A stretch of DNA of 64,000 nucleotides from Phoronis australis (Eukaryota; Animalia; Phoronida): assembly GCA_002633005.1 (NCBI GenBank), contig NMRA01000137.1:186001-250000 (forward strand), read 5' to 3'. Every line of letters starts with the position of its first letter. Within the stretch, counting starts at the first letter, position 1. Below the pieces are notes generated by a model. The model was given only the letters and a program-made list of their open reading frames with translations. It was not told the origin of the DNA and ran no database searches. Shown here piece after piece: positions 27,149-63,364 of the stretch. The translations under genes and the position numbers were made by a program.

Positions 27149-28704
27149 TAGTATGCAATCTTCAGGGACCAAAATTATGTCATTTTCTTGGTGAATAGTT
27201 CAACTTTCAAACACAGTGCTTGAATTGCTCTCAAATTGGAAATTTGCTTTGTGAATTACGTTTGAAACACGTCAAAATGCTACAAAACAGTTATCCTTTT
27301 CAAGTAATGCCTTCCTGGTACCGGTAATCACAAACCAAATAAAGAATAATCGAACATCCCTGGAAACCCTTTCTGTTTGAATAAAAAGCGCAAACAATAC
27401 TTTGGGCTCGATAATTGATATGTAAATGTGCTATTTATACATTGCCCGGCAGTAAAAACGTAAATACTTGCAGAACGAAATGTTTCCATTTTAATGTCGT
27501 CTTTCGTTTGACAAAACACTTTCTGAAGTGGTGAAAAAGAAGGAAAGAGCGTCTTAAAATACTTCCTCACCGAAGAGATGCTGCGATTTGAGATCGGTTG
27601 TAAGACCCCAGAAAATTGTCCAACTTTGACTAAATTCGGAGTATCATATCCTAGAAATTACTCACTGGATTCCAATAAATCTTTCCGATACTGTGCTCTA
27701 TGCACTGTTCTCTAAAGCTTTTTCAGGAATTGTTTTTAAAATGTCCCACTTTTGCATGAGGAACTATCAAAAATAGGGCTTTTGCAATAAGTTAGAAAAG
27801 TAACAGCATTTTTTTAGATTTTACCTGGAACATTTACATGAAACAACTTTGATCATGCTTTTGACACCGTTGATTTACTATGATTGTACCTTTCATTTTA
27901 GCCAATTTTTACTCAAGATATGACCACGTGACTCAGTCAGCTGAGTATTAGTGCCAAGTCAAAATCAGAAGTTTTGTTTGGTAGGCCACTGCCCACATTT
28001 TCAAGCACGTCACTCGTATGAAAACCATGACCTCATGATCTCCATCTATATTTCGCGAAGATCATTGTAATCTCGCGAAACTCGTAAAAACTAACCTTGC
28101 AGAACGAAACCCAGACACATGCACAATTGATGGACAACTGTGAATCCTTGTTATTTGTTTTTCTAACTATTCAAGATGAGGCTGATGTTTTTTTCTTGTG
28201 TCACGATGGCCCTCGAGTAGCAACCGGTTTTGGGGTCCCTCGTTGAACATTTTCGTTTTCTCAGCTCAAAGACACCATTTGCCTCTGTTTTTAACATTGT
28301 TGTACATTTCATTACTCTCACCAATCAAGAACACAGAACCCTTCCGTTAATTACAGACACTGTATTTATCCACGTTTTACACTAAAATTTCCCAAGTGCA
28401 TAAAATTCGTTGGTATATAAAAAATTTCAATATTTTCGAAATTCCAGTTATTTTGAAATGAATTTCATGTTTTGTTGAGAAAGCAGCTTTTGGGAATATC
28501 ACATGAGACAGATCTCTAAGCTGACTCAAACTTGTGGAACTGCTGCACTAACACATCCTGTCCACCCCTGACGTCATTAAATTATGAACATCGGTGAATT
28601 AGATATAAAATTCACACGTGGCTCAACGCAAACCACCGACTCCCAGCATCCAGTCTCTTTTGGATTTCTGCAGTCCGTTTACAGTCACCATGTTGCTAAC
28701 GCTA

Positions 28705-28881
28705 TCATAAGATGTTGCATGTTTTGCTTTTCGCGTTTGACAGTTCGCTGCCTTTCAAGCTACCCTTTTCCATCACCGCGCGTATTCCCTCAGCCGCATG
28801 TAGCACTGCTATGGCAGCGCCATCTACGTTTCCCATTTGAGTGGCAGTCGCTGCTTCTGCCGCTATTTTCGCTGCCGTCAC
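28705..28881 (-). CDS. ROCO last coding exon ending in CaaX (SKTCNIL*)
   Basis: tttttcag|GTG ACG GCA..., 58 aa Ala-rich, ends TGC AAC ATC TTA TGA. Confidence 0.78.
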   Translation of the reverse strand: MTAAKIAAEAATATQMGNVDGAAIAVLHAAEGIRAVMEKGSLKGSELSNAKSKTCNIL

Positions 28882-31800
28882 CTGAAAAAAGGATGTACAA
28901 CTTTAAGAAACACTGGCTGAGCTTTTCTGTTTACGCACGTTCCGGCTGGTCGAGCGACTAACTATCTAATTGGCCTGTAAGCCGAAAGTCGTCATCGAGA
29001 ACCAGTTGAATCAAATGCCGCAGCCGACTGATCCGGCGCCGCGGCAATCGGCGACTTTAAGCAAATGCAACAATAGCCAGTTATTCTTGATGTGAGGTCA
29101 GGGTTACGTTATGTAACCCAAGACACGCGCAATATATCCAAAAACGCAACAAATCTTGGGATATAGAACATAGTGTGTATTTTTGCAACTCATCCCAACA
29201 TTATAAACATTCCCTCCACGCCGTCAAATCACTAGGCCCACAATGAACAGACGGCCATTTTTCTACTCTATGCAGTATGGTCGCAATTCCGCCTTTCAAT
29301 AACACGTCATTGTGTGATTTTGAAAACTTCGCAAGAAACTCATCTTACGGAACGCACACCATGCTGATTATTCACTCTTAACTGGAAACTCGTTTGCAAA
29401 GCAACACAGTGATTAACTATACCTGTCTTCTGATAGAGTACCGAGAACACATTTCTAAGTACCCACCCCTACTGTTGTATGGTAAAATAACGAGAACATA
29501 CTTCTACATCGTAGTTCCAGTTACACCGCCGAAGAATACGTTTGACTTGATGCAAAATTAATATGGTACATTGGAACATAGCTCAACGTTTTGCATCAAA
29601 GCAAAATTGTTGTTTTCGTCACCACAAGGAGTCATTCAGACGATACAGTACAATATGGCCTGACTGTAACAGGTGAGCATACAATATTTCTCATTGTTGG
29701 CGTAAATTTTAACATTTGTGCGGAAAATGTCGCGCAATTAAGGTTTTAGAAAATCCCTAGAAGCCTTTCTTTCTTAAAATCACATCAGATCCGAAATTAA
29801 ATACAAACCTGTGCCTCAGTAACCCTGTGTGTCCTTTGATGGTTGTCTTCGTATGCCAGCTCGATATACTCTGCGACAGCTTTTGCCAAGATGGCCGCCA
29901 CAAAAGCCGAAGCAATTTTGCTTGCCGCTTTTATTTCCTCATCTTCACTCAGCATTTTTGCCTGGTATCGCTCGTCATTTCCAGTCTGCGCCACCATATT
30001 CTCATTTTTATGTTCATGGGGCTGTGGTGACAACGCCTCCTGGTGGTTAACGGACAGGAATGTTTTATTGCATTTCGTCTGACTAAAACGATTAGCGCTG
30101 TCTTGCCCGTTTTGGCGATTCATTTCTGTAGTACCATCCGAAGTTTCAATGCTGATCACAGGAAGGCCAGACTTAACTGATTTGACTCCGTCTCTTTTGT
30201 TGTTGATGATGCTGCCGTTGGTGGCGCTGATGCTGTTTTCTGCGCTGTTGTTGTTTAGGTTCCACGTAACAAGCAAACCCTGTAAGTTTAGCAAAAATGA
30301 ATCTGACAACGTTTGGCTGATGACAACGGGTAATGGTCGGGTATAGCGTGCCTGCATTTTGAGAACCAGTTTTTTCCACTAGACAACGGGCATCAAACTG
30401 GTTCTCAAAATATGGACACGTTATATCCGACTATTGCCTGTCAACGGGCATAAGTTGACAAGACCTTTCTCAACACTTTGGAACCTAGCGTAGACTTTAT
30501 TGGGGGTTCCATTTCACGACATTCATCTCCAAGTGCCCTCATTTTCGTGGGACCCACATAGCACCCACACATCTCACCTAGAGGGCGGACCTGCCCTGCA
30601 GGCGCCCAAACGATAAAAAAACTTCTTGCACCACTGCAAGTTGCGTTGGCATCAACTATTTCGACATTTTTGTTTTACTGGGATGTGGAAGAGTTTTTCA
30701 CAGATGAACCGGTCTAAAATCTTATGAACAATTTAGAAGAACATAATCTAACATTTAAATCAAAATCAAAAATTGAATGAAATGCAGTAGCTAAAAAGCA
30801 CGCTATCCCAATTTCTTGCAATATGCTTTTAACAAATTCTTACACAAAGTAGTTCGAACGAGGCCTACGAAATAGTAAAATTCTGTCATTGATTGTAAGG
30901 GGTTCCATCATAATAAGCGAAGCTATTCAAAAAATTTTGATGAAAGATTTGACATTGTTATCATTAACTTACAATGTATCACACGTTGGACAACATATCG
31001 ACAGTGACAACTGATTAAACGAGGCTTACCGTTTTCTTGGAAGCTTAATTAATCAGACCACGTTATCTGACTGTGTTTAAAATGACATCATCTCTAGTTT
31101 AGCCCAATGTAACGTGTCATTTACGCCCACATCCGTTGAATTTTTGAAATCAAAAAAACGCTCCGTGGTTCTCGTTAACTCTTAAAAGCTTGGAGCAAGT
31201 TTGAAAAGTCTTTACATAGTCTTCTAAACAGGCAATCATTACTAACGCTGTGGGGTCACTTAAGTCACGGCAGCGGGGAATGACTGCTAATCAAGGGTGC
31301 CACAATAAAAAACGTGTTTTAGCGAAATCATGATTTTATCTCACACCGGATGTGCAATTACGCAATAGCTGATGGAGAATCAGTTTTATGTGAAGCTGTG
31401 GAAAAGGGGTTCACCACATTTCCAACAACCATTCCGATGGTGGAGGCTAACGACAAATGCTGCTCACTAGCATCCTTTGAAAATGACACAACATAGGAAG
31501 CCATGCAACGACAAACGCCGCTTACCTTTTTCTTAGACGATTTTAGCTTCGTTTGTGTCAATGGTTTGGTGATTTTTGGAAGAACCTTTGGTAGTACTGT
31601 TGTCTGCTGACAGCATATATGACGTATCCAGGCACTCAGGTTTTGATCAGGAGTATCTGCAAAATATACCAGATGAAATTAAACATTTCCTTCCTACGTA
31701 CTGAGTACGAAATTCACACAATAACCGTATTAACCCTATCAAACTTGACTGATATTCGTTATCGTCATCATGGTATTGATTTGCACGTCACATACTCATT

Positions 31801-34800
31801 AGCATAACATCACTCTGATTTTGTGGAACTTATCAACAACGCGGCGTATTAGCAGGGAAATTTTCTCATTAGAAGGCATCATTTCTACGCTCAGCAAAAA
31901 GCTTCAAGATTCTATCCTGCTCAACAATAATTCCCAAAATGTTTTTTCGGCCGAAAAATTTAGTATGTCCATTCAGTAATACCAACGCAGTAGTTCCATA
32001 GAGCGATGACATAAAAACTTGTCAAAATGAGAATGGCAAGATACATCGTTCTTTACTTGTCGGGCTCAGTTGAGAAGTATGAATGAGCACAGATTTTCAA
32101 AAACAAAAACAAAAAAACGTCCACCCGTATCAATGTCAGCCATGGTCTCGTGCTTATTGTCTTGAAAAACTGCACAATGGCACATATGCATGGGAAAGCA
32201 AGGTTTGAAACGCCATGAGTAAAAAAATCCCGCACCATTTTACTCATCTCAGGTGAATTACATTATCTTGAAAAAATGAGCTACTGAAAAAATGGCACAT
32301 CACCGACTAGATTTTCCAAAAACTCAGAGACTAGAACCAACAACGCCTAGTGGAATTTTCAACATCTTCAAAAGTGGAGACTTGAATTCGGAAGGTGGCG
32401 AATGAATTCAAGTGTCCAGATTTGGACGAGTTGGTCAGCTCCGGCGAAAGCGATGAATTTGGAAATCATTTTTACCTGCCTTTGCCCTAGACGATATTTT
32501 CACTGGACGCAGAATATTTTCTATTATCACGACGCAACGCTTCTGACACATCATTTATGGATAAGTTATTTATTTTGCAGTCAGAGTCTGCATATATAAT
32601 TTGAAATTTAGACAGTGAAAGCTGGGGGAATGTCCGTTTTATTTCTAATAGAACAACAAAAACAACCGATTCTGCTGTTTTATATCTCTGATCAAACTAA
32701 CAAACCCAGAAGTCTATTCTACCTAGCAACAATCCTAAAATGCGTTTTTCGGCGCCCAAACCGACTGAGTTCCCTGTTCACAGAACAGTGTAACGCGGTT
32801 CACATAAATACCATCAAGGACGCAGTAGAGTGGCTGCACTGCTTATGGGAAGATCTACTATTTTTGCGAGTGCGGTATTGCAGTCCACGGCGGGCAATAG
32901 AGACTAAATACTCACTTTAATATTATCAGATATGAAATCCCCTATAATTTCTAGTGAACTTAATTTCTAATCAAATATTTACGACATTGCATTACGATAA
33001 GTGATGAATAGATGTACCTAGAAGCACGCATAGCCAAGCAAAAAGCATTTCTGCCCGGCAACGATTCCATAAACGTTGAATTGTTCCGTTAATCTCATGC
33101 GCACACCCAGAGGGGGCGGAGGGCTCGGGGGGCTAGAACGAGCCCCCCATTTGGTGAAGTGGGCGCAGTGGTGCGCCCGCTTTTTAATTTTTTAGTCCCT
33201 CAGCTATTTTGTTACCAAAAGGTCCACAACTTTAGGGATTCGAACCCCCCACCAGAAGGCTGGGTGCGCGCATGAATTTACACTTACTAAAGAACTGCTC
33301 ACCAATAAGAAATGTATTCTGAGCTCCCGAGTCACGATCTGAGCTTTAATTACGCTTTCCGCATGCGAGAGGACTTCCGGGTAACAAAAACAGGACAGCG
33401 AACTGCTACGGCGCATTCGAGAGTGCCTGGTAGCATCACAGATATAATATGTTTTAACTCGAGCCCAAGTTCTTACCTGTGAAACGTATCAGGGTGGTCA
33501 GGTCTAGTTCCCCGGTTCCGTTAATATCGGTGAAGTTGAACACATCGCCCCCTGTCAACTTCGAAAGACATTCGTTCAATGGGAAGTAACTACTCGATTC
33601 TCGCCGAGTCCCGTTGAAAAACAACTCTCCATACGGCGAAAGATATATCTAAAATAGAAAACAGTATTCTGACATTCGTTTAGTGAAGCTACCTCAGTGG
33701 AAACTTCATTTACAGCCGAAGTGTATTCTAATTGGTCGAAAGAACGGAGTTTGAGGTAAACTTTCCCTTTACGCAGAGTGATATTTAAGAAAATGTCGTA
33801 AACTAGAAGCACTGCAATTTCGACTGTAACTTCGTACAGGATACATGTATTGTGACGGCGATTTTCATTGGAAGTTAATAGGCTTCTCTTAGCCAGGAAG
33901 TTAAAGTGGTGCTTGACTAACGACAGAAAATATCCGCTATGTGGAAGTCATGTTAATTATTGAGAAATCATAGAAATCGGAAAGGACAATGATATTATTT
34001 GAAGAAAATAGGATGAAACTGATCTGTACCATATCCGACCAGAAGGCCCGTGCAGGAGGCAATCCTGATATTGCATGTCCCTAATTCACGATTTTAAATT
34101 TTTAAATATAAAACTCACGCAAAAATAGGGCCGCGGGGAGGAAGAATACAAAATAGACGTTAAAATATCAAGACTAAGGTGACAATTGCCAGTATGTAAA
34201 AGTGAAAAGGCGTTTTCCTTGCAACAAAGTAATTAAATCACATCATTTTTTGGCCAAAGTACGATTAGAAAACGGACAATTGCCGCACAAATAAAGAAAT
34301 TCATGATAACTCAGCGTTTCGTCTTATTCAACAAGACATCATCAGGATATGTACTGTGGGACAACAAGAGTCGATTACCATTTAAGTCATATCCATGAGG
34401 TGAAATGAGAGTGAGAGATACAGGGAAAGTATGTAGGTTATTACCATAGTTGCAGGGTCACTGAGCTCTGCAGGTTTTTGAGAGAATCAGTAGAATGCTG
34501 ATCCTGAAAGGCCAATGACTCCTTGATATACAGTAATTCCTTAGCAGGTTCTTTACATATAATACTGGCTTGATGGTTGTTGCTAATACAATGCCTATAA
34601 ATGTTACTTTTGTCGACATGCAGAGCTCAGTGACCCTGCAACTATGGTAATGACGTACTTACTTTCCCTGTATGGCTCACTCTCCTTTCACCTCATGGAT
34701 ATGACTTAAATGGTAATCGACATTTGTTGTCCCTCTGTACATATCCTGATGATGTCTTGTTGAATAAGACGAAACGTTCCGTTTTTTCAGTCCAACGACA

Positions 34801-37800
34801 GATTCCCTGAGCAGAAGGTATACATGTACATCATCAGCACCCGCAACTTCCGGGCCGCCTGCTTGCATACAATCGCGCTTTGCCGCTTCTCCGAGGATGT
34901 CGGCCCCCCCTCATGGTATCCTAGATCAGCCACTGAAAATGCTACTTGAGACAGAGCTATGAGAGCTTGCAACAGGGCGGGTGCTATTGTTGGTGATCGG
35001 GAGGTCAGTAGATTTTTCACTGACCCGTCACTCGGCGAAACGTTCCCCTCTCAGAAGGCCGCACAGGCACCTTTCCCGTCGGATATGAACGAGGCCTCTG
35101 AAGAAACTTGATAACTGTGCTTGTTCCAGGGGGGATCCAGGACTTTGAGTGGGGGGGGCAAGGCAGAGTATTAGCCAGGATTTTGCCCGTCAGACATTCG
35201 CGCTCCTGAACTGCCAAATGGAATCTGGGATAATTTTAGGGGGCATGGCCCTCTTGGCTCCCTTCTAAACCCGCCACTGTGTTCTGTCCAGTTAACTGAA
35301 ATTGAGCTCTAAAACGAGGTTATGTCTTGGACGAAAGAATTAAGTGTTTTAATTTTAAAATTCAACTTGGTCGAGATTGATATTTGAAAAATATAACACA
35401 TGAAATGGACGTAATTATTAAAACCAAGAAAGCAGAATTGATGGTCATATAATTTTTAATTTCAATTGCGAGCCTGGTTTTTTATCGTAATCAAAATACA
35501 TATTTAATAACATCAAGTATTATTTCAGATCAATGACAAATCAAATGTTAGTCCCGGTAGTGCCTACCTCACCAGGACATAGGCTATGCTTGAAGCTAAT
35601 AAGCCTACTCTTGATCAACAAATTAAACCAGGGCCCAGTTGCATAAAAGTTATACGCCGCATAGCAACAATGACGTCGCATGATCACGCGCCACGTTGTT
35701 ATTGTTGAACAATGCACCTGGCGTCATGCAACAATTGAACTTATCCAGCGGCTAACTTTTGAAGCTTTATGCAACTCGGCCCAGATGTGACTAATTGCAC
35801 ATGACAGCAAAATGCTATGAGCCACCATGTCGAATATATCTTCAACTCGTCAACAATACGACCAGATGACCTGGTTCGTTTAGGTAGCATTTTTATCAAG
35901 AATTTATTAGAAGAAACGTAACCCTTCATTCAGCATGATACCTAATCCGTAACACTACGATCGCCGCAATTTGGTCATGTTTACTTTTCATGTTTCGAAC
36001 CTAGTTTTTCGGAAAAAAAACTAAATTATATCTTTTCGCCAGACAATTCTTTGGTGCATTGACTTGTTCTTTAATTGTATTTTTCTGTGTTTCTGTGGTT
36101 AATTATTGACACATTTTTTAAGATTTAATATTCAGGTTGGACTCCAAAGACCGGCCATTTAACTCACGCAATGTTAATTTCCGCTTTGTTTATCGCGGTG
36201 AGCCTCGCTTTGGATTTTAATGTCCGCCGCGTAAATTGGGTCTATAGTGCGATGAAACCTTACGAGTTACGTATGCACGTACTGGAGGCGTGCATGTACA
36301 AATGGTAAACAACGAACTCTGTGATGCAGAGAGATTAGCCAAACGTATCCTAGCCGACAGTGCAATGCCAAGTGACTATCACAGAAAAGGAAAATCACTC
36401 GACGTTACATTGACGAAGTCATTTCTTGCCAAAACGTTTGTTTTTTGGATAGAATTTACCGGATTACGTCCGAGTTGTAATTACGAAATTAAAACCTTTC
36501 GGCCTGAAGATTTGGCGTTTGAAAGTTTTTATTCACACATTAGTGATACCTGACACCACACGGTGAATAATTGCACATTTATTAGATTTTACGGAAGCCT
36601 CACCTTATATATCAACCCAGGGTATCTCCTGAGGAATTCTAACAGCGGGTGCAGGAACGTAGCCAGTAAAACCCAACAAAGATCAATGGAGCCGAAGACG
36701 TCGTCACCTTCTTCCTCGTTCACACGCGCTATGATGTCGAAGGAATTGCCCTCAAAGGAGACATGGACCCATGACTGCAAAATTAATTATGAAAAATGAG
36801 TTACTTGTGTCAAGAATAAAATGCGTATAGGAGAAGTCATTATGTCACTTCATTCGCTGGGTAGCAACAATGACGTCGCACTATCACTCGTTGCTGTTAT
36901 TGACCAAAGTACATGTAGATGACGTCATGCAACAATCAAACTGTGGACATTTTTTTTCTAAGTTTTACACAACCCAGCGCTGACGTTTTAATAGTGTGTT
37001 ATTGAGTGATCATTTACTACTCAAAATTTAATATTCTCGGGAACCTGCTGGCTGCAAGTATAAGAAACACAATTATTTTTGTAAAAAGAAAAATACAGAA
37101 GTTTACTTTATAAAAAGAATAAATAAACATGTGAAGACCGGTGAGCTTATAAGGTTTACAATTTTGTAAAAACCGAACATCCCGAAAGATGCGCTCATCT
37201 GCTTTTATCTTTTTATTGATAAGGGTGCTTGCTTTTAATACCCTTATTACAAGAAATGGTGCATAGTTAAATTATATTTTGGAGACTTTTATATGTAAAC
37301 GTATGCCAAGTTAGTTGAGGGGCGCTGAGTTTTAGCATTTGCTTTAATTATCTTGAGCTTAATTACGCAATATCGTCAGTGTTTTAACGTCATAGCCAAT
37401 TTATTATACGCAGATAGCCTCTTACTCGCAGAAAGAAAACAACAGAAAATCCAGACCGTTTCAAATATTGCTCCATGGGCGGATCTACAATTTTAGGAAA
37501 GAGATTATTAAACCAGCGACGCCGCTTTGTTATTCTAGCGGCGTTTCTTCCTTTTGGTCGCGGATCGCTCCCAAAATGGGAACACCCTGAACCCCTCGTA
37601 AATTCGCCAACGCAATTCACAGGTGGATTAAGCTACTGCTCCGATAAGGTAGGTACCTAAGGTTGTCAATTCAAGGGTAGGGTTGAAAACTCACTAACAT
37701 TTCAATGAAGTCAAGACCACTCTGAGATAACAGAACCAGTGACAATTGCACGTTTCCTTATCCCAGGCTAGCCGAACAACACGAGTGCAGCACTCAAAAA

Positions 37801-52800: not shown

Positions 52801-55800
52801 AGTACACCCTGGTGTCAACAAAAACAACTGACAGTTGTTTTCTGTTGAAACCAGGGAGTACAGTCAGACTAGCCACGGTGGGTCATTTTGTGCACCTAAC
52901 ATGGTCTCCAGCAATACTGAACTGCCGTTTTTTTCGTAGTCTGGAAACTACATAACTTCTCACCTGAATTTTTTGAAACGAGTTTTACATCGGTAATCAA
53001 AACTTAGGTTCTTTGAAAGAACGCGGGATCAGGTATATCAAAGGTAAACTTGCCCCACCATTGAGGTCTCTTTATTTTTGCTTAGTGAACCAACTGAACG
53101 TTTCACTGACAGTGGGGCAAAAGATTTACACAAACATAATACTGAACAGTCGCAATTCCGTAGGTTCCTGTAGGTGTTATATTTACATGTATTATAATAA
53201 ATTTGTTGATGTATCTATAGTGTTAAATCTAACTTGATACATCAAATTTTCCTTTGAAATCGACACGGTTGACAGATGATTTACAAACATTAGTCAGCAG
53301 TTGTCTGAAGAAAACAAACTATGTTTTAGATTTGATCAAAACTTGACTAGTGACAGAAATGCATTTCAAACTTCTTAAAATTGCTCACGTAAGCATCGAA
53401 CGTAGTCAGCACAAAAACAAAACATTAGCCTACGTTTACCTCAACGGGTTTTGCTAATAACTGCGAAACATGGTAATCACATTACCTGCCACAAAATTGG
53501 AAATAGTATTTCCCTGGCTAGCCCTCTAAGAGGTATATCCTCTAGCGCCCTAACAAGGAGGCCAGGATCTGGTGTCGTGCACTTGCTGCTTTTTGGCCAA
53601 AATCTACCAGCTTCAATTCTGAAAAATCGAAATTGATTGAAAACTCACGATAGGACTATACCACATCAGTATGAGGCTGTATTTAAAATAATAGTTTTTT
53701 TTTAAAATGATAATAACTAAATAAGTGACTATAAAAGGTGTAGACAGTGCAACGAAACATTTATGAGGTCGACTGAAATGAAATGATTACAACAACAGTA
53801 ACAAATATATGTTTAGTCTACGTGGTACAGAACACGTGAATCACGCTCTTGTTGAAAGTAGATTACTCACTTCCTTTCCAAGGATTCTCACCTGAAGGAT
53901 TTTTTATCGTCATCGACTAGCATGCAGCAGATTGCGTTAGCGAGCGCTCTCGGATTGACACACAGAATCAAGGAATCCATTTCGTTTCCCTCACCTAACT
54001 CGTACCTAACAATTGATCCCTGCAATTACAGACAATTGAATTGCATAACATTCACCGTGAATTGGCATTCCCGTATGCCAGCGTATCCACTGGTGGAATG
54101 ACGCCAGCCTTAAAGTGACATAGAACGTGAAAACTGACTAAGTTGCATTATTCAAGGTGGTCTCTGCCACTAAAAGAGACCTCACACTGCTCACCAGGTA
54201 TATTTAAAGTTTCGTCTTGATTTTTCTTTAGGTTTCAAATTTCACAAAACGATCCGTCAGCTGCTCTCTGACAGGGCAATGGACGTCTCCTTATTTGGTA
54301 TGGCATGACACACGTAATACATTTCCCTTTGATGTAATCAAAACTGATGGCAGCAGCCAGTCCAACTTCTTTGAGCGCATGCGCGTATTATTAGGGGCGA
54401 AGACATTTGAAAACTGTATTGAGTTGAAAAGATTATAATTTTTGGTTTGTGTTTTAAAAATGCTGATTATTACGAATTTTTCTAAAAATTCTTGCAATAT
54501 TCAAAGTCAATAAACCTCACGTTAGTATCCCGAAGAAGTAGATTCGTCACGATCTGTTTAAAAGTGATTTTACGAGAATTCGCGTTCCAGGCCCCTTTAA
54601 AGTCTATGTGTGCAACTCTTTTACGATTGTTAAAGCAAACAAAGCTGTTGCCAAACTCAAATCTTATGGACGGAAGTTATAGGGCTAGATGATGTCAAAT
54701 AATATCACAGCAAAATCTGCGTCCACGAAAAGCTCTGCTTTCACAAAGATTTTTCCAGAACAAAGCATTCACATCCAAGGGATGCAAAGGTTTGCAAGAT
54801 TTCCAAAAGGCAAAAAAAGAAACAATGTGAGCACGGAATAAGTAAGAATTATTAGTTTTTCTTACACGCAATAACTTGGTCACATCACGTGACCTATAGT
54901 GAAGCCTAAAATGTTCCCTGTGACGACCGGAACTGGAACCCGGCACTATGTGCTAACCATGTAGAGGCTCAAGTCCACTGCGCTGTCGAGACAACCGGTC
55001 AATGTCAGAAACCCAATCAGACTTAACAGGAGGCCTTTTACCCTAACTTGGTAATTTATGCAACTGTGTTGTTATGAAGCAGCATGGTTAGCAGAACAGT
55101 GGCGGATCTAGGATATCACAAGGGGGAGCCCAACATTTTGTCCGGCCGTAAGCATTTGCGCAAACCACGATTGTAGATGCGCATAGCACCGAATGAGGGG
55201 AGGTCGGGAGGGGGGTTTGCCCCCTTCCCGCCCAGGAAATTTTTCTGTTTTTTCCTCTAAAAATCAAGCATTTTCCTTGATTTCTGAAGTATTATCCAAG
55301 AAAAAAAGGCAAAAAAAATACGGAGAACGTGTCAAACAGGAAAAACTGCGAGTTCCACAGCTTCGAACACACGACCTGGCTAATAGGACGCGCGTGCTTT
55401 ACCACTACACCACCACTAAACTAAAACTAAGAGACCTACTTGTTTATGGTCCACAGCGTTTGCGCGCGAAACCTACTTCTTTTTGTAATGCTTATTACAC
55501 GTTTTATATTTTGTGCAATCGGTTGTTAACAAATTTTTTGTATTTAAAATAGTCATCAAATGCCCAAAAGACCAAATCCGTTTTTTGTGTTGGCAATAAT
55601 GACGGGATTGCTTTGGAAGTCGTCTTAAGTTAAGGTTTGACAAAGAGAGAATTAATGAGTTTCTGAGTGATTCACTAAGGCTTAGATTAGAATTCACATC
55701 TCACCAGCAGCTTCTGTTTTTTCATCGTCACTCAGGTTCCATTTTCTTTAAAAAATAAAGTAAATTTTCTTCATTGCACAGTGGAGCAGACGACGGAAAC

Positions 55801-58800
55801 GGAGTCGTAGTGCGTAGCGCCACTACCGGTAGCCTGGGATATCGCGGGAGAGCCTACACTTAGCCATAGTTCCGTTACGAATGCGCCGTGTTCCGAATTT
55901 GACACTTCAAATTAGATCTGAGCCCCCCAAACACTAAAACTGCACACATTTAAACCTTTTTTCATCCGTATAATTTTAATTACCTGGGCAAATTAAAAAA
56001 CTCTACATTTCCCTACGCTCTTGCTGTTTTCTTTTTTGCCGCAGCTAAATCCGCCTATGCAGAAATTCCCCGGATCGAGCCCCTATCCAGATCTTTTCAG
56101 CTTTACAATAGGTCAAGTGATTTGACCAACATACGGTGTATAAGAATGATAATTCATACTTATACAACAATAATCGCGCTGATTTTAACAGCACAATCAG
56201 TTTCATCTTTTACCGTGTCAATTTGAATACCGCTAACACACGCCACTGTATATTATTCACGTTAACAGGCGACTAGACTTCCACGAGACAGCGGCGTCCG
56301 ATCACGAGGTACTAGTCTCGGAATGTTTTCCTGGGCCACCACCTTCGAGGAAGAAGTACTTCCCAGTGAAGCTAGGTGGCGATCCAAGTGTCTCACGTGC
56401 TCAGTCGTCACTGCCATGAGAACGCCGTACGATTACTACACTTAAACTACTGAACTTACCGAGATTTCTAAGAAATTTAGATATTCCTTAACGGCATTCT
56501 CGTCTTGGAAAAGATTTTCTAATTCGTCGCAATAAACTTTGAAATCAGTCCACGATACTAATACGGTTCCTGCGTTCTTTAACTTGGTTATTTTATCCTT
56601 TAATATCCAAACTTCATGTCCCACGCTGTATCCATGGAGTGGAAAAAGTTTCTGATCCAAAAGTTTTGCGAGAAGTGTTTTTCTTAACTTTTCCACGCCC
56701 TGCAATAAAAGGATGATATCTTATTTTGATAAATTTCAGTTTATTTTGAGTTGTAGCATCTCAAGTGCTTTCAATTAACCAAACTTATGTTGAAAGGTTT
56801 AATTTAAACACAATGTTTTCATCCTCAAACAGCAAACCTTGGAAACAAACAGTCTGTAGCCTGAGGGATATCTAATTTCCGGCAGTCTGCGATTGACGGA
56901 TTTCTTGATAATAACATAATTTCACGGAAAAACATCCATCACTTTTGTTAAATCGCTGGACAACGTCAAAGCGTTTTCCTGCTAGTACTAAATGCATAAA
57001 CTATCGATCTTTCCCAAAAGGACAACCTTTCCACTCCCAGTGTGAAGATTCGTTTAAAGAACACCCCACCGCTTTAATGGCGATTTCTGATTTCTTTTGA
57101 ATAATGTATTGGCAGAGCAACTCTGTGTTACTGTCGTTAACTACGAAAGGTATGTGCAAGTTCGAAAACGCTTAACAGAGTAGACGAAATAGACAAACGT
57201 ACCAAGCTTCAAAATGGCCGAATAAATGAAATCGGTGGTACATGGTACCGTTAAAGCAACCTGTGAACTCTATTCTGCCCAAGGTGTTATTGTAGACAAT
57301 TCGAAAGATAACTCAGTCGCTCTATTCAAGAACCAAAACGAAAGAGGTCTCTCTAAAAGATGAACCAGAACGGTGTCCTTTAAAAAGGGCGCTGCAAGTA
57401 ATTTAACTTCCGGAGATCAGGGACAGGTCCAGCACTATTACACGGCCACTCATACGTTTGTTCTTTGAGTGGATAACTTCCGATATACAACAATATTGAC
57501 CAAGCAGGTCGTAGAATATGACTTTTCGTTCATGCCGCTAGATGTCGCTATTCGTGAACCGTCCAACCAGACGCGGTGGATACCATAAACCCCGACTACA
57601 GTGCGAGTACACGAGGCCAGAACAATAAAGCAGGATTGATCCATATTTGTACAGTATTTCACAAAAGCATCAAATTATCTTGGCATATTACCTTTCCACT
57701 AGAACAACTTATTTCCATGATACTGTCTGCAAGCTTTGGGCGAGTTTTCAAAGCGTTGTCATAGTAATCAATTTGTTCTTGTATTTTGCCGCATATATTG
57801 CACAACCTACAAGACAAGGACGTTCATGTCACAGTGGGGAAGATTCAATCACATTTGTTTTGATAGTAGTTTAATCTTCGTACTTACCAGTGAAAACGCC
57901 TTTCATAAGAATCTCGTGTGAACGAGAAAAAATTTACACGGTATGATTCAAATTTGTTCTTTTAAATGGTGAACAAAATCAAGCCTTAACTAGTAAGTCT
58001 TAAAATCAGCCATCTAAGGCGTATTTCACGTATTTTTTCGATACATATTAGCGTGGCGTTTTTTCCCCAAAAAGCGAGAGACGGAGTATTTCGGTAAACA
58101 ACATGAGCCAATGGTCTTGGCTGTATCAGAAGAGCCATTCCGTGCGAAACCAAACGATCATGATAATTTCCAGAAATCGTTTGCACGACGTTTGCACTTT
58201 CACTGACGACATTAAATATACCGTGAAGTCCGAGCAAGGTATTATGAAAAACACCTGCCTAATCAATATTGATTATTGCAATAAACGTTCATTTTGATCG
58301 AAAGTGTCGAGCATCGGCAAACTAGCTCACGAACTGTCTCCTGCTTACGTTGTTGTTAATTTCGAAATCAATTAACATGTTTACAAATATATGTAAACGA
58401 CTTACTTGAGTTTGTAAAGCTCCTCTTGAATGTTGTCGATAAGGCGAGCCTCGGTACCAAGCACCATCTTTATTATCTCGTTTTGTTTGATCAAAAGCTT
58501 TTCGGCACTCGATATTTTGTCAATTTTTGTTGCTACCAGCAAAACGGCACTACCAGGACACTGAAATTCGAGAAGACTAAGTTGAACACAACACTATCGT
58601 GGTCGTCGTCACCGTCCTCGTTAAAGTTCACGTCATCGTCGATATCGTCACCATATCTACCAGCATTGCCATCACCGACAAAACCACAGCAACAACTTTC
58701 TTTATAGTATGTATTTTCGTTTTCGACGCAGCTATTGTCATTTGCTGCGCATATTATAATATAACACACAAAACAGGAAACGGCGGGGGGGGCGGGAAAT

Positions 58801-61800
58801 ACAAAACCCACAATAATTTGTTGTGAAATTCTCGAGATGACCGGAGGGGAGCGCAGATCGCGAAGATCGTGGAAGTCAGAGTTTGACGCAGTTGTAATGA
58901 CCTTAACAACGAATCTGTGAATGAAAATGCGTCTATACAATTTGACAAATGTTGATGTTCATCATATTTTTGAGTATTCTACTAAGTAATTATGCATGGG
59001 TCACGCTGAACGTGACATTGGCGGCAAAGATCATTTCTTGCCATCTTTGTTCACGTGCATTTCGGAACGTGTCTGTCATCGGATGCTTTTAAATTATCGT
59101 TTTCTTCCTCTTGTAACAAGTTAGTCCCATAATTTGCCTTTCTCGGAGTCTTATTCAGTGTGCCTGGAGGTTGTTACGGACCTGAGTGCACGTATTATGA
59201 GTTCTCAAAGAATATAGGTGTTCCGTTTGACCAATTTCCAGTGGATGAAAAGATCCCTCAAAGTTGGGACATTCGTCCACCCCTCAGATAATTCTAACAT
59301 TCCTTACCCTCGGATTACGAAAACGGCACGCAAAAATCATAAAGGTACATCTAGAACGTGTTATGAAGAATGATGCCATGTAGCGCCGGTACTTCTCTTC
59401 TCTGCTCAGTGCCGCCACCTGCAGCCACTGCAGTGACTCAGTGCCAAGAAGTTCATGTCACCCGTGCGTGTGAATAGTCACCGCAGTGTCCAAGGTCAAG
59501 AACCAGCACAACTTCACCATATGCTGGTTCGACCTCTGCCTGGGCCTGTGCGTATTCAGCCCACGCGTTCTTCTGTTCAAAAATGGGCTTCTATATTCAT
59601 GGGCGGCGCAGCACTGAAAAAGGTGGGGGAGGGGGGGTATAGCCCTAGTCCCCTATGGCGCAGTGCCCACTGCCTGGTCGCGAAATAATTCATCGTCACT
59701 TCCACTGTCCACCATTTCTCCGTCACTGACTCTAAAGGTGCCGATTCCAGCCATTTCCCGTCCATTGCAGATCAAACAAAGGCTGAATCGCACTCAACTG
59801 AGTTCTAATCCCGGGTCTAATTCAGCCTAGAATTTTCCATGCGCGCGCACAGGCCAAAAAGGTCCGCCTCAGAGAAACAAAAAGTCCGAGAAAACGAGAC
59901 AAAATTCCACTGAAAAGGTAAAGACGCACAGTGAGGGTGGTACCCCGTTTTTTGTTTAGTCCTTCCGCAAAAGGTCCACATCGCCAGAAATTCGAGCCCC
60001 TCATATTAAAGGCTGGGTGCGCGCATGTTTTCCTAGGACACTCTTCAAAGACAAATACTAAATTACGGAAATTTTTGGTAATTAATATTCAGATGTTCAC
60101 CATGAATCGTTGCTCCAAACAAAAATGGTGGGAAATGACCTGTACCTCGAACGTTCCATCCGGGGTGACACATGCATAATAAATTAGGACCCAAAGAAAC
60201 TTGATGAAGTTCAAAATCTATCTAGCGTCAACCGAAAGTCGTATTTTTAACCAAGATGACGCTAAAACTGCTGTAAACCCGACTGAATTAAGGCAACTTA
60301 CAGTTACAGAACTGGGGCCAAGAAACTGATAAAATTCTTTGTTGGCTTAAGTCTAAGATTTGTCTCAACTTTCAAAACTTCCACTTGACTGAAATTTAAG
60401 ATTTCTCTTAGCTAAGTCAATTTTATTGATACCGACCCCTGGTCTCAACCGGTATTTTACTCAGATTTGACGTTATTTCAGAGCTACGTAACGATTGACA
60501 GTTCGTCATCAACGGAGACCGTGCTCAATCATTTGACGTGTCACAGCGGGTCATTTTAAATGCCGAGTATGTACTCAAGCAATAACGAACTTATTTCGAA
60601 ATCCAGAAACCAGTTCTCACATCAGGTAGGAAAAACTTGAGTGTAGGGACATTTCAAAAGTAAGTTTGTTTGTCGCGAGGCGGGTTTAAGGTTACAGAAC
60701 GCTATCGGCAAGCCTCTGTATTTAGCCAAATATCCACACAACTACAGATTTTAATTCATTAAAAGTAAAATTATCATTTCGCTTGTGTTATATGCAAATT
60801 TATTTTTTTGTAAAAATCATAGACATAAATTTGATAGCTTCTCATGCAAAATGGAACATTTAAAAAACAATCCCTAACAGAGTTTAGGAGTTTCATGTGA
60901 ATCCGATCAGCCGTTTCAGATGAAGTTCCGAACTTAATCAAATTTGGACTTTTTCTAGGGTCCTGCATAACTTAAAAACATCTGAGACAACATCATATTA
61001 GAAGCCCCCACAATGGGAAACTGCTCTGGCCCAAGCAACAAAGACACGTCACTCACAAAATGGACGTATTACCTTCGTCTGTATCAGGTGTATATAATTA
61101 AGCACACTATCACAACTCGTCTGATCCACCACGTTAAAGACGATGACGTATAAAGCACCTTTGGTCATGTACGACTGATGGGCCACCTGGCAAACCTGTA
61201 ATGGCGACGGAAAAGTACAAACATTTATATTTCGAATTAAACTTGGAAGCAGAGGATAAAATCTACGAAAACACGAGGCCTACATCTTTGCCTGATACGA
61301 TGAGATCCAAATGTCGTTCAATATAAGGCGAAGTCGGGCGTGTTTTCAAGTACGCCTCGGGTTCGAAAGCAAGACAATCTCTCTGAACCTTTACAGATTC
61401 TCTACAAATTACCAACACTCAAAGAAGCGTACAGCTATTTTGAATTTAGTTGTTTCATCAATTCGCTCTTGAAATAAGGTACAATGTGCTAATTGTAACC
61501 TTGACCTAGACCAATGATAGGCGGCACTTTAATCACTTCGCCAGTTGAAACAGGTAAAGTGGTTAAGTACACAGTGACGACCATCTCTATAGAGACGGTG
61601 AGCCTCCAATCGGGCGCTTCATACGTCGGAAGCTTTTTGACGAATTATGCTTCACATTGATTAAAACATCTGGCGCGCGCGGTAAAAGTAGGAGCGCTCG
61701 CAGTGTTGCCAGTTGCCGACTTAGGCAACTGAACGAAGGACTGCTCGAAAAAAAGTTTGATTACGGGAGCAGTGTTCGAATTGGAAGGAATTAAGGACAT

Positions 61801-63364
61801 TGACGGTCTCCTAAAGCATCCCTCTATGCGCAAAAGGTGCTTTTAACAATGTGACTTTGATTTTTTAATTAGTGTGAGGCATAATTCGCCGACAAGCTTC
61901 CGGCGCATGAAGCTTCACCGTCTATAAGGGCAGGCCAGTAGAGACGGTGGTCATCGTCTACCGGCTAAGACAACCGCTTGGTTGATACACCGGTTGCCGT
62001 ACTCCATATCTTAGCCGAGTACGATAACCGGTTTACCAACCAATCCGATGTCTTGTTGACCAGGCTTAGTGCAGCCATTGTTTTTAGAGGTGTTACCGAG
62101 CATTTGTTTCGATCCTTACTCATAACGTGGCTAAAGGACTATTACGGCGAAAAAATCTTTATGTGGCATGTTCACACACAGTCCAGCAAAACAATGAACA
62201 GACAGTTTTTTCTAAAATGCATATTATCATTTACGCATACAACTTAAGTAATACCGTATTGTTGTTTACCTGTCTCCCGCACAGATCCCAAATATCGACA
62301 GCCAGGTTTTCTTTCCCAGTTACACCATTGCCGTTTGTGCCTGGAATAAAACTGTTGTTATCGCAGGTCCTCCAACCCTCCTTTCAAAAGCTGTGGAAAC
62401 ATTCATTTTCAACCTACGGTAGATAGTACATGCCTGCATATAACTTAACAAACTTTCACGATGCAGTCTCGCCTCGCCGCTTTCCACTTAACGCGGTACC
62501 GATGCCACTTTTGTTTTGAACACCTGCATTGCATGAAATGGAAGGGAGCAATAATGTCTGATTTTTATGCAGTCAAATTTCCATAAGCCATGTATAACAA
62601 ATGTCCAAGATCTAAATCCTCGAACTCAACACTTAACTCAGATTCAGACTCGAAAATCAACTAATCACGCTGCAAGATTCGAGCAAAAATTTGCAAGTTT
62701 ACTCAAACAGTGGCATTGGTCAATCTTCGATTCCAGTTAAGCGTTACTAGTATAGACCCTGAGCCCAGATTGCCATTCAAGTCAGGAATGAACTTAAGGA
62801 TGCTGAAACTGCTTTGAAGCTGTGCATGTCTCGGTACCATAGTCATATCCATTGATGAAGAAGTACTCAATCTTAAATTTAGTCTAGTGACCAAGTAATA
62901 CACTGAAATATGGTGCAGCTTGAATTTACTGACGATTCTTGCCAAAATAGAAAATTGATGGGCATCTTCTGTTGTGAGCGAGTATTTGGAAAATCATTTC
63001 AAAGTGTCAGCGACAAATCCTATCCACGACAACGTCGAGGAATTCTAAAAATTTGCAAAATGAATAATTAAATAATGCAAACTTAATCACATGGCACGAA
63101 ATAGTAACATGTTTCGTGCCCACTACGTGATGGAACTTGGCAAAACTTTCTAAATGCAAAAGTAAAACACCAACGAGTATTGAAAATTGGGTGTTTTGAA
63201 CCCTAAAGTCTATCTCACCCCTTTCATCACTTTCAAACGGAAACCAAGTGTCAACAGTTACTCCCTCTGTTGGTTGTTCAACTGTCCTCACAGATTCACC
63301 GATTAGCGATTGTACCAGACTGGTCTTCCCACTTCCAAGATCTCCCATGACGAATAGCTTACAC
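28705..63364 (-). CDS. ROCO-family (Roc GTPase + COR) protein, MFHAS1-like, 3' portion (15 exons; 5' end not located, probably beyond window)
   Basis: Exons in transcription order: 63364-63219, 62340-62270, 61195-61073, 58560-58406, 57806-57692, 56699-56460, 54019-53892, 53618-53486, 52637-52452, 43355-43173, 36774-36604, 33648-33477, 31656-31526, 30279-29809, 28881-28705. All GT-AG, phases chain correctly, 2602 nt open to TGA. GTPase motifs: G1 GDLGSGKTS, G2 PTEGV, G3 IWDLCG, G4 VATKID, G5 ISCS. COR-like motifs: GVEKLR, LNFLEISGSIVRY, LQLME, YLPLL, LPGFFRLMLTR, LWNNG, YPGL. Confidence 0.88.
29809..30279 (-). CDS. ROCO exon: low-complexity tail with AKAP-like helix
   Basis: 157 open codons, acag|GGT...CAG|gtttgt; contains IKAASKIASAFVAAILAKAVAEY. 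Confidence 0.78.
30323..30441. repeat. Imperfect palindrome (hairpin MITE-like)
   Basis: attttgagaaccagttt / aaactggttctcaaaat plus outer arms. Confidence 0.7.
31526..31656 (-). CDS. ROCO exon: tail
   Basis: ttgcag|AT ACT...KLKSSKKK|gtaagc, phase 1 to 0. Confidence 0.75.
33096..33274. mobile_element. MITE with CATGCGCRCACCCAG TIR
   Basis: TSD aatct/aattt (4 of 5); relatives at 59838-60027, 63594-63880 and about 8330-8492. Confidence 0.65.
33477..33648 (-). CDS. ROCO exon: post-COR
   Basis: tttag|IYLSPYGELFF...FPLNECL...FT G|gtaaga. Confidence 0.8.
34315..34776. repeat. Long inverted repeat (about 158-bp arms, 146-bp spacer)
   Basis: 34315-34472 is the reverse complement of 34619-34776 with a modest number of mismatches. 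Confidence 0.9.
35127..35279. mobile_element. MITE, sister copy of 10220-10382
   Basis: Shared gatccaggactttgagt and ctgaactgccaaatggaatctggga; TSD tgttc/tgttc. Confidence 0.7.
35630..35784. mobile_element. Small MITE (GGGCCCAGTTGCATAAA TIR)
   Basis: Terminal inverted repeat; related fragment at 36860-36980. Confidence 0.55.
36604..36774 (-). CDS. ROCO exon: COR end
   Basis: SWVHVSF...LEFLRRYPGLIYK|gtgagg. Confidence 0.85.
43173..43355 (-). CDS. ROCO exon: COR C-terminal subdomain
   Basis: QLNWMPKP...WHFEFSGSILPGFFRLMLTRC...HLWNNGLL. Confidence 0.87.
43617..45290 (+). mobile_element. Kolobok-like non-autonomous DNA transposon
   Basis: TTAA at 43613-43616 and 45291-45294; 13-bp TIR AGGAGAATGCCAC; internal THAP ORF. 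Confidence 0.8.
43781..44077 (+). CDS. THAP zinc-finger ORF (transposase N-terminal remnant)
   Basis: MPLYC...C...FFRLP...RKWL...RVCGRHF: C2CH THAP signature with conserved P, W and F. Confidence 0.8.
   Translation: MPLYCGASLPACPNYEDAKKAGISFFRLPREPEMLRKWLAGVKNIRYAVNSKYEAVKRLRVCGRHFVDSDFSDEFRLTKELSIRSVAYACSRRYSSAS
48974..49948 (-). CDS. Tyrosine recombinase of Ngaro element
   Basis: FLRVSE (R), FKH (K), HSFRIG (HxxR), GRW, NYIR (Y); intact 324 aa. Confidence 0.95.
   Translation of the reverse strand: MALSNTDHSSTAPPYVLTSLLQSSLAPSTISTYRRALSHFLHYHSSSACPLPVFPVSTSTLASYIAHLFSSGLTASTISTYVSAIGFIHKLDSLPDPTSSFLVKKILKGVSNSRPSVDTRLPITTPILHRLLNALPSALNSHFHASLCAAMFSTAFHAFLRVSEFTVATSASSPFSVLQVSDVSVTSSSMSLTISHFKHHDHTPNILVIPRSTGPHCPVATLQHYLTLSNHSSGPLFQLPNGSPITRSYFTRHLNLVLGCVGLDPQRYKSHSFRIGAATSAANLQIPDSTIQRMGRWKSDALKNYIRLSSLNLPVANVPTPSLT
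49897..51855 (-). CDS. Reverse transcriptase/RNase H ORF of Ngaro element (true start uncertain)
   Basis: KFRLIHNLS, KTDIKDAFRL, CLPFG, HLLDDF; RNase H YTDS, KEL, CDN, NFIADKLSR; uninterrupted. Confidence 0.93.
   Translation of the reverse strand: MPQPCFTINSFVSCAPLTLFLGKPPIWNSGIRLSSNLTKFHLPLTTQIPSVLTTHAHSPFVPNFSNHVQPPHTPAVSAGGSTPHSALSSTVATSTAVSLAMASTPPLLALPPPTLNQHREPPPPPPDLPTPIKINKLEPYLLGYPSALTVRIIHGFTYGFRIGVSSMLSSPPPHNHPSAVLNSTVTEHTIQHEVDCGRYSGPHQYPPFDNFITSPLGLIPKKDSGKFRLIHNLSYPSRDTDSVNSHIPLSFSQVHYETIENAMFLVRRSGHNSLMAKTDIKDAFRLVPIHPSDYRFLGFVWAGQYYFDRCLPFGLSSSCNIFELISSSFQWILQNKFNVPGVSHLLDDFFFVGPPNSPLCSSYLRTFLTFCEEIGVPINHQKTVLPTTSITIYGIHLDSQSMTASLPQDKLTKALHLLQSFQNKRSVLLRDLQSLIGFLNFACLVIIPGRAFLRRLIDLTLGISQPHHHVTLTKESRADIRAWLTFLHSFNGKSMFLFEHWTSSQSLKLYTDSASVHGGFAAVCGSNWFSGPWPSSISHLPITFKELFPIVLALEIWGPKLANHRILFMCDNHSVVHIINKTSSKDPNIMRLVRRLVLSTLHHNIHFKAKHIPGKTNFIADKLSRFLFQDAFSMAPWLSPTPTTVPQHLLTF
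51443..52214 (-). CDS. Gag-like ORF1 of Ngaro element
   Basis: IWTDQYVDFGHLI motif, WNQAFLIYLAIY, YDQQFR, Cys/His knuckle CRRFNSAFC...CRYIHRCITCNGFHPASAC; no N-terminal ATG. Confidence 0.8.
52452..52637 (-). CDS. ROCO exon: COR
   Basis: DTKLNESQVRIMLQLMENLDLL...FYLPLL...KP|gtaagg. Confidence 0.85.
53486..53618 (-). CDS. ROCO exon: COR
   Basis: ...RGLAREILFPILWQ|gtaatg, phase 2 to 0. Confidence 0.85.
53892..54019 (-). CDS. ROCO exon: COR
   Basis: GSIVRYEL...LCVNPRALANAICCML. Confidence 0.85.
55097..56059. mobile_element. Non-autonomous DNA transposon, second copy of 26310-27148
   Basis: Collinear similarity over most of the length; TSD cagaa/cagaa. Confidence 0.8.
56460..56699 (-). CDS. 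ROCO exon: Roc/COR junction
   Basis: GVEKLRKTLL...AVKEYLNFLEIS|gtaagt, 80 codons. Confidence 0.88.
57692..57806 (-). CDS. ROCO exon: G5 region
   Basis: LKTRPKLADSIMEISCSSGK, phase 2 to 0. Confidence 0.85.
58406..58560 (-). CDS. ROCO exon: G4 motif plus helical insert
   Basis: CPGSAVLLVATKIDKISSAEKLLIKQNEIIKMV... Confidence 0.88.
59838..60027. mobile_element. MITE with CATGCGC TIR, 5-bp TSD
   Basis: TSD ttttc/ttttc. Confidence 0.7.
61073..61195 (-). CDS. ROCO exon: Roc
   Basis: VCQVAHQSYMTKGALYVIVFNV...LIQTK, a Roc-typical HQ.....ALYVIVF segment. Confidence 0.88.
62270..62340 (-). CDS. ROCO exon: G3 motif
   Basis: ENLAVDIWDLCGRQ|gtaaac; acceptor ttttattccag. Confidence 0.85.
63219..63364 (-). 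CDS. ROCO exon: Roc P-loop (G1) and switch I
   Basis: cag|G TGT AAG; CKLFVMGDLGSGKTSLVQSLIGE...PTEGVTVDTW; donor gtgag. Confidence 0.9.

Follow-up and report, generated by a model that had tools for sequence, protein, structure and literature searches.

The gene that we identified on the minus strand of the analysed DNA (64,000 nucleotides, referred to as the window) is genuine and spliced: an invertebrate gene that encodes a LRRK2-type GTP-switch protein. Its product is probably a prenylated, self-tethered Roco protein whose Roc-COR switch would have its output through protein binding. How Roco proteins are recruited to membranes is a key unsettled question in their biology: most LRRK2 is cytosolic, and its activation and dimerisation follow its delivery to membranes by Rabs (PMC6337361). 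If our reading is true, a kinase-less, self-anchored Roco would separate membrane tethering from Rab recruitment and phosphorylation, and would allow the action of the Roc-COR GTP cycle at a bilayer to be studied directly. The absence of a kinase after COR, on which the original prediction of a new subtype was partly based, is real but not new, because MFHAS1 and the other group-1 Rocos also lack one (PMC6337361); no prenylated Roco was found in the literature searched.

Sixteen exons between positions 63364 and 28705 (Table 1), with GT-AG ends at all 15 introns, join to a frame that is open for 874 codons (874 aa) and encodes, in this order, Roc, a divergent COR, a linker, and CNIL followed by the stop codon. 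In the 5' direction the gene continues past position 64000, and the N-terminus is outside the window. An open, phase-consistent chain had been predicted before with 15 exons; the chain was found, and the count has to be raised to 16, including the 24-nt exon 62523-62500, which is the least certain of all. RNA evidence concerns the six lower joints (28881 to 52452), and the Roc exon chain rests on GT-AG ends, phase, and the orthologue. Four of the six lower joints were observed directly (28881/29809, 30279/31526, 31656/33477, and 36774/43173), and a fifth (33648/36604), which is not listed directly, follows from the lengths and depths of the contigs. These five joints thus tie the COR-B exons (43355, 36774) through 30279-29809 to the CaaX exon 28881-28705, a connection that the original prediction had assumed. 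Another frame of exon 15, Gln-rich and protein-like in appearance, was rejected, being out of phase and without support from the orthologue.

Table 1. Features of the gene and its transcripts (positions in the window).
Feature	Position	Strand	Remarks
Exon 1 in window (internal exon)	63219..63364	-	Roc G1 P-loop GDLGSGKTS and G2 Thr; 21/48 residues identical to orthologue
Exon 2, 24-nt micro-exon in Roc loop	62500..62523	-	GT-AG, required for phase; 1/8 residues identical to orthologue
Exon 3, Roc G3 (WDLCG)	62270..62340	-	
Exon 4, Roc switch II region	61073..61195	-	21/41 identical to orthologue
Exon 5, Roc G4 (TKID), then beginning of helical insert	58406..58560	-	
Exon 6, helical insert and G5-like strand	57692..57806	-	
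Exon 7, Roc end and COR-A start	56460..56699	-	Atlas COR-A clusters at 0.90
Exon 8, COR-A	53892..54019	-	19/42 identical to orthologue
Exon 9, COR-A	53486..53618	-	28/45 identical to orthologue
Exon 10, COR-A to COR-B link	52452..52637	-	
Exon 11, COR-B	43173..43355	-	Joint to 36774 spanned by 3 reads (RNA run X4)
Alternative upstream exon spliced to 36774	41284..41390	-	7 reads in X3, 2 reads in X4; 5' end approximate
Exon 12, COR-B	36604..36774	-	RNA (X1 record 5; joints into 36774 seen)
Exon 13, end of COR region	33477..33648	-	Joint 31656/33477; depth arithmetic
Exon 14, beginning of weakly conserved linker, with Lys-rich patch	31526..31656	-	Both joints in RNA
Exon 15, linker and tail helix A	29809..30279	-	Both joints in RNA
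Helix A core, conserved, Ala-rich	29863..29916	-	Shares FVAAILA with orthologue; hydrophobic residues spaced as in AKAPs
Helices B and C of predicted three-helix tail module	28780..28881	-	22/36 identical to orthologue; orthologue model
CaaX box CNIL and stop codon	28705..28719	-	Orthologue ends CNIM
3' UTR, minimum extent	28218..28704	-	X1 record 1 (28218-28879) also crosses last joint

The sole orthologue found, the uncharacterized protein LOC141904413 of the nemertean (ribbon worm) Tubulanus polymorphus (XP_074649100.1, in a single-member cluster), is collinear over the whole model, with 285 of 903 aligned columns identical (32%, E 1e-122), and all statements on conservation compare these two species. 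It has FBXL2-type LRRs, with FBXL2 as the best match among solved structures (E 2e-19), and we infer that the window gene's own N-terminus, too, carries such repeats. Identity is highest in the two tail blocks (15/28 and 22/36, 54-61%), lower in Roc (81/230) and COR (131/385; 34-35%), and lowest in the linker (26/157, 17%). Searches with single exons gave no homologue among 35 candidates for exon 7 and 8 candidates for exon 1, and exon 10 recovered only two repeat-like fragments from 1.84 billion representatives; in a simulation, the exon 10 search recovered 3/3 relatives at 50% identity, 2/3 at 40%, and 0/3 at 30%, and the orthologue is 26% identical in this exon. A metagenome match to the last exon was rejected, because it reads the opposite strand of a bacterial NADH dehydrogenase gene, and no relative was matched in viral contigs.

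The predicted Roc motifs were recovered, with G1-G5-like motifs in the chain and a Pfam Roc match on exon 1 (E 6e-6, 26.9 bits with a cut-off of 27) that is clearer on the orthologue (E 4e-14, 53.3 bits, same cut-off), and the joined model matched two bacterial Rocos (E 7e-13 and 1e-9). COR is less evident at the sequence level: none of 14 window exon pieces matched Pfam COR, the orthologue gave a weak COR-B match below the cut-off (15.8 bits versus 27) at the residues matching exon 11 and no COR-A, and an HHalign comparison reached E 0.058 over 145 collinear columns, which is not significant; 3 of 30 shuffles scored higher. A COR-like fold after Roc is present in the low-confidence model of the orthologue, which has a poor mean pLDDT of 44 and leans towards a Roco, as its alignment included 26 bacterial Roc-COR rows. 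This model contains a winged helix at 563-644 (Z 10.1, rmsd 2.4, 70 aligned) and resembles LRRK1 over 187-846 (Z 8.5, rmsd 14.0, 314 aligned). Foldseek searches with it returned Rocos from E 4e-9, with LRRK1 and LRRK2 as the best matches and Rocos as all 27 matches listed through rank 28; exon 7 alone gave no clear match in fold comparisons. The kinase of the LRRK (group 2) and DAPK1 (group 3) proteins was found neither after COR in the window, as had been predicted, nor among the 14 Pfam matches on the full-length orthologue.

The nearest Atlas clusters are of the MFHAS1 type (at 0.95, 222-224 of 256 features shared), a comparison by features, and the LRR type of the orthologue and the extra tail differ from MFHAS1. 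The group-1 Rocos, which comprise vertebrate MFHAS1/MASL1, plant TORNADO1, and the C. tepidum Roco, share the LRR-Roc-COR core without a kinase (PMC6337361), whereas here we find FBXL2-type Cys-containing LRRs in the orthologue, a strongly diverged COR, a linker of ~150 aa, a conserved helical tail, and the CaaX end. MFHAS1 has been described as consisting of LRRs and RocCOR only and as restricted to deuterostomes (PMC4104024), in contrast to the nemertean orthologue found here. LRRK1 and LRRK2 are alike in their Roc-COR fold and act at membranes, but they have a kinase after COR, and LRRK2 is recruited by prenylated Rabs (PMC6337361), whereas here the putative prenyl signal is on the protein itself.

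The predicted end NAKSKTCNIL followed by the stop codon was read in the RNA-supported last exon, and the terminal Cys, whose loss in orthologues would have spoken against the prediction, is kept in the only orthologue found, in the form of CNIM. In sequence, Cys at position −4, an aliphatic a2, an X among L/M/S/Q/A, and a true C-terminus are all present, and only a1 is not aliphatic, being Asn. An end of the type C-x-[VIL]-[LMSQAF] is expected by chance at 0.2-0.3% from composition and occurs 20 times among the 5523 stop-to-stop ends of the window. We consider it likely that the terminal Cys is prenylated. Geranylgeranylation had been predicted, and here the conserved part is the CaaX box and not the lipid type: a final L points to geranylgeranyl and a final M to farnesyl (PMC9141697), so that the change from L to M keeps a prenyl-type lipid signal. 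A second membrane signal is weak, with 4 K/R versus 2 D/E in the 20 residues before the CaaX box, and the orthologue has two extra Cys upstream of CNIM. The same last four residues, CNIL, end human GBP2, where they are prenylated and suffice to send GFP to the Golgi; GBP2 without CNIL resembled the wild type under the microscope but lost membrane fractionation (PMC2998424). As the CaaX box is kept in the ribbon-worm relative, the protein likely anchors itself to membranes and is not fetched by other proteins.

The protein would thus combine a Roc GTPase fold, a divergent COR, a flexible linker, a helical module, and a terminal CaaX box in one chain. The predicted prenyl lipid would likely tether it to the membrane, taking the place of the Rab-mediated recruitment used by LRRK2, and Roc-COR is predicted to act there as a GTP-controlled monomer/dimer switch with an output likely by protein binding and not by phosphorylation. 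The "long tail" of the original prediction is indeed present, and it is more than length: an Ala-rich block before the CaaX box, predicted to form three helices, is the best-conserved region, and this ~90-residue module, which has no Pfam family, gave nothing relevant in searches of Pfam and PDB sequences. It may be the working end beside the lipid, where it would bind a partner or cover the lipid in the way that GBPs use their C-terminal helices. GBP1/2/5 are large dimerising GTPases with C-terminal helices and a CaaX box (PMC2998424, PMC11846989), but their G domain is of the dynamin family and not Roc-COR, and the analogy is functional and does not imply homology of the helical tails.

Helix A might instead be a docking helix for PKA regulatory subunits. 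In that case the full protein, or its short form, would be an AKAP with a prenyl anchor, and Roc-COR would switch or position it. AKAP helices are amphipathic, comprise 14-18 residues, and have a hydrophobic face at 2, 5, 6, 9, 10, 13, 14, and 17 and a variable polar face (PMC12083921). Hydrophobic residues or Ala occupy 8/8 face positions in the window and 7/8 in the orthologue, the first main-frame Met after the alternative exon at 41284 is in exon 15 and precedes helix A, and LRRK2 has been reported to be AKAP-like through Roc (PMC8750662). However, the opposite face of helix A is Ala-rich and also conserved (6/10), the hydrophobic moment in its core is only 0.10-0.22, the orthologue model, at low confidence, packs it into a three-helix bundle, and no Pfam AKAP family matched in the tail. 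An AKAP sequence pattern moreover fits three registers of helix A and also two of helix C, and we regard PKA docking as unlikely. A complex prediction for helix A with helices B-C, run without alignments, scored 0.02 and counts for neither side. A bolder scheme would be an undescribed old animal Roco subfamily in which the GTP cycle opens a prenylated three-helix tail and exposes the lipid and a PKA-docking helix, combining GBP-style release with AKAP-style anchoring, and in which an internal promoter yields a switch-less, tail-only form; this, too, we consider doubtful.

A further question is whether the self-tethered Roco protein switches at all. The orthologue has SRRN where the window protein has TKID and thus no clear G4, so that GTP cycling is not assured, and MFHAS1 has a very low GTPase activity (PMC6337361). 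FBXL2, the best match of the orthologue's LRRs, is itself an LRR protein with a C-terminal CaaX box, ends CVIL, and is a GGTase-III substrate (PMC9141697). One could therefore imagine a degenerate Roc in a constitutive prenylated scaffold, the LRRs binding a membrane client in the manner of FBXL2. Against this stand the G1 Lys-Thr, G2 Thr, and G3 DxxG, which are kept in both proteins, and the intact TKID of the window protein. No F-box was matched on the orthologue, and, differing from FBXL2, Roc-COR and the tail lie between its LRRs and the CaaX box. Cys-containing LRRs are a generic repeat type, which also speaks against the scaffold, and we judge it improbable.

The reading of a lipidated Roc-COR protein must finally be weighed against the transcripts. 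An exon at 41284, with the donor AAG|GTAAGT and RNA depth fading near 41390, is likely the internal first exon of a short transcript, a second and new form that likely lacks Roc and most of COR. In RNA run X3, 7 reads join exon 12 to this exon and none joins it to exon 11, depth on exon 11 is low, and the joint 43355/52452 was covered by RNA yet not seen. The CaaX end might hence not be lipidated, or might belong mainly to the short transcript, with the Roc-COR form rare or ending elsewhere; this seems very unlikely to us, as three X4 reads do come from exon 11, X1 record 5 is compatible with exons 11-12-13, the orthologue, annotated independently, carries the entire chain in a single protein, and it keeps CNIM after a linker that is only 17% identical. 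A separate downstream gene as the sole reading was rejected on the RNA joints, the depth arithmetic, and the collinear orthologue. Alongside the self-tethered Roco protein, the likely internal-start transcript may supply the tail without the switch.

The window holds a real gene whose CaaX box is conserved in the single orthologue found. Within DNA of animal-like composition (~40% G+C), the gene was rebuilt on the minus strand from 16 exons. Each of its 15 introns has GT-AG borders, and the exons join into one open frame of 874 codons that closes with NAKSKTCNIL-stop, the same end that the original prediction had read. That prediction counted 15 exons; the extra one may be an exon of only 24 nt. 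Exon 1 starts at an acceptor in mid-codon, and the N-terminus therefore lies outside the window. The Roc domain claimed earlier is confirmed by a Pfam Roc match of exon 1 (E 6e-6) and by alignment of the joined model across Roc with two cyanobacterial Rocos (E 7e-13 and 1e-9), and the best solved-structure matches of exon 1 include M. barkeri Roco2 (4wnr) and LRRK2 Roc.

Searches with single exons did not recover the orthologue; a profile of 11 piled pieces led to one protein among 7997 candidates scored (E 4.2), XP_074649100.1, with 1180 residues, from the ribbon worm Tubulanus polymorphus. Nemerteans are protostomes. Residues 2 to 874 of the joined model align to this protein (285/903 columns identical, E 1e-122), and such a near-full-length alignment independently supports one single protein. 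The orthologue ends in CNIM, thus keeping the terminal Cys on which the claim of prenylation turned, and no kinase family is among its 14 Pfam matches, in agreement with the kinase-less architecture proposed. Identity is 35% in Roc, 34% in COR, 17% in the linker, 54% (15/28) in helix A, 61% (22/36) in helices B–C, and 42% in the last 24 residues. The conserved tail block of helices A–C is new and was the chief feature overlooked in the original prediction; the conservation of this block and of the CaaX box refers to two species, Phoronis australis and T. polymorphus. An ENA record (P0001) carries, in four tandem copies, a stretch 40–43% similar to the last part of exon 10. Every copy stops at the position where the Roco gene has its intron, and the record probably represents a third relative, from reads of host DNA.

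By sequence comparison, the COR of both proteins is divergent. Pfam COR-B reached 15.8 bits on the orthologue versus a cut-off of 27, and HHalign against 78 cyanobacterial Roc-CORs gave 145 collinear columns at E 0.058; of 30 shuffled versions, 3 scored higher. In the Atlas, exon 7 is near COR-A clusters (0.90) and the orthologue is nearest to MFHAS1 clusters (0.95) by feature likeness. The orthologue was also modeled with AlphaFold2, from an alignment including 26 bacterial Roc-COR rows. Overall confidence is poor (mean pLDDT 44), but the model still predicts Roc, a winged helix at 563–644 (Z 10.1), and an alpha/beta COR-B pattern. The 27 rows that Foldseek listed up to rank 28 were Rocos without exception, with an input alignment biased towards Roco. 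G1–G3 are present in both proteins, and G4 is TKID in the window protein versus SRRN in the orthologue. The modeled tail has three helices (pLDDT 60–70 at 1101–1140) that align to a designed bundle of three helices (Z 8.5, rmsd 2.7, 91 residues), which for helical bundles indicates a common arrangement only. It seems unlikely that helix A is an AKAP helix: the hydrophobic spacing described in PMC12083921 is found at 8/8 (window) and 7/8 (orthologue) positions, and LRRK2 is reported to show AKAP-like behavior (PMC8750662), but the opposite face is conserved and Ala-rich, the hydrophobic moment is low, and the helix is predicted to be buried.

Protein ends of the type C-x-[VIL]-[LMSQAF] are expected by chance at 0.2–0.3% from composition and occur at 20/5523 stop-to-stop ends in the window; Cys at −4 was seen in 1/76 related bacterial Roco ends, which are close kin and non-independent. 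Human GBP2 also ends in CNIL; it takes up label from mevalonate, and its membrane fractionation is lost when the box is removed. CNIL by itself directs GFP to the Golgi, while GBP2 without CNIL is wild-type-like by microscopy (PMC2998424). As Leu at the last position predicts geranylgeranyl and Met farnesyl (PMC9141697), the Leu/Met change keeps the predicted prenylation, not the lipid type, and the geranylgeranylation originally proposed is predicted for the window protein and not for its farnesyl-type orthologue. The basic patch upstream of CNIL is modest (4 K/R and 2 D/E in 20 residues), and two extra Cys upstream of CNIM are possible palmitoylation sites of the orthologue. The N-terminus of the latter carries Cys-containing LRRs with FBXL2 as best match (E 2e-19). 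GGTase-III recognises the LRRs of FBXL2, and prenylation of the Roco by this enzyme might speculatively be hinted at by these LRRs (residues 140–305 of the orthologue). It is improbable that the Roco is a prenylated LRR scaffold resembling FBXL2, with weak catalysis.

We consider it reasonably likely that the protein is a group-1-like Roco, prenylated and self-tethering to the membrane through its long flexible linker; all of the mechanism beyond anatomy we infer. LRRK2 resides mostly in the cytosol; prenylated Rabs recruit it, and its dimerisation and activation take place at membranes (PMC6337361), whereas here the lipid would be built into the Roco itself. Without a kinase, its output would be binding, most plausibly via the conserved helical module adjoining the lipid, which could dock a partner or alternatively control lipid exposure; a parallel would be farnesylated GBP1, in which the last helices extend on activation (PMC11846989). 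LRR-Roc-COR proteins without a kinase form an established group (PMC6337361; PMC11378527), invertebrate Roc-COR proteins carry many other C-terminal domains (PMC9334734), and MFHAS1 is reported as deuterostome-only (PMC4104024). No prenylated Roco was described in the titles and abstract openings listed, which came mostly from open-access journals, so that a mention in a domain table could have escaped notice; 'prenylated' in PMC6337361 and PMC9334734 meant Rabs or a cited reference.

Four RNA data sets, all labeled as the same species and comprising a contig set (X1) and three raw runs sampled at 18–19%, were aligned over 27500–47400 at 90% likeness and over 33400–53300 at 98%. Joints were directly seen for 4/6 fully covered introns, with the first mate on the plus strand in all raw reads, the orientation that standard stranded libraries give for minus-strand RNA. 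Joint 33648/36604 is absent among the joints listed at 90% and from all 5 listed at 98%, and we infer it, though tightly, from the lengths and bin depths of an X1 contig (record 5; 370 nt, depth 14.8, 60 nt before and 139 nt after exon 12) that would span exons 11-12-13: seen versus expected depths were 5.05 versus 5.04 over exon 13 and 1.3 versus 1.29–1.34 over exon 11, and depth was 0 on the 41284 exon. The link of the COR exons (43355, 36774) to 30279–29809 and 28881–28705 thus stands at four joints directly and at this one by depth. Joint 43355/52452, which spans a retrotransposon, was not seen in RNA aligned over 33400–53300. A second, unexpected joint, 36774/41284, is supported by reads of two raw runs (7 in X3, 2 in X4); as X3 lacks exon 11 depth and the depth of the 41284 exon fades near 41390, this exon is most likely the internal first exon of a short transcript. 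In this exon, an ORF of 36 codons starts from a strong-context ATG at 41348 but is out of frame. A 57-codon frame from ATG 41454, with Cys-Cys near its start, is in phase with exon 12; read cover extends over only the last ~100 nt, so that this ATG is beyond the covered part. A CaaX box that is unused, or mainly a property of the short transcript, is very unlikely.

Features of the window and RNA-supported joints
Feature	Positions	Strand	Remarks
Roco gene	63364–28705	minus
24-nt exon	62523–62500	minus
Joint	28881/29809	minus	X1 contig; 4, 4 and 2 reads
Joint	30279/31526	minus	contig; 10 reads
Joint	31656/33477	minus	contig; 3 and 1 reads
Joint	36774/43173	minus	3 reads in X4
Upstream exon	41284–41454	minus	spliced to exon 12
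Retrotransposon, presumably DIRS-type	47580–52430	minus	inside intron 10
Its reverse transcriptase ORF	49900–51879	minus	Pfam RVT_1 E 1e-13
Its tyrosine recombinase ORF	48977–49990	minus
Its upstream ORF	51446–52300	minus	no Pfam match
Long coiled-coil gene	3284–23522	plus	convergent with Roco gene
Its terminal FYVE finger	23373–23522	plus	Pfam E 1e-15
Short tandem repeat arrays	3900–4640; 2300–2680		in introns of plus-strand gene

The retrotransposon, which we take to be of the DIRS type from its gene set, has repeated flanking blocks and is covered by RNA reads at 98% likeness. The plus-strand coiled-coil gene is presumably EEA1-like, and the tandem repeat arrays in its introns have long open frames in several phases.
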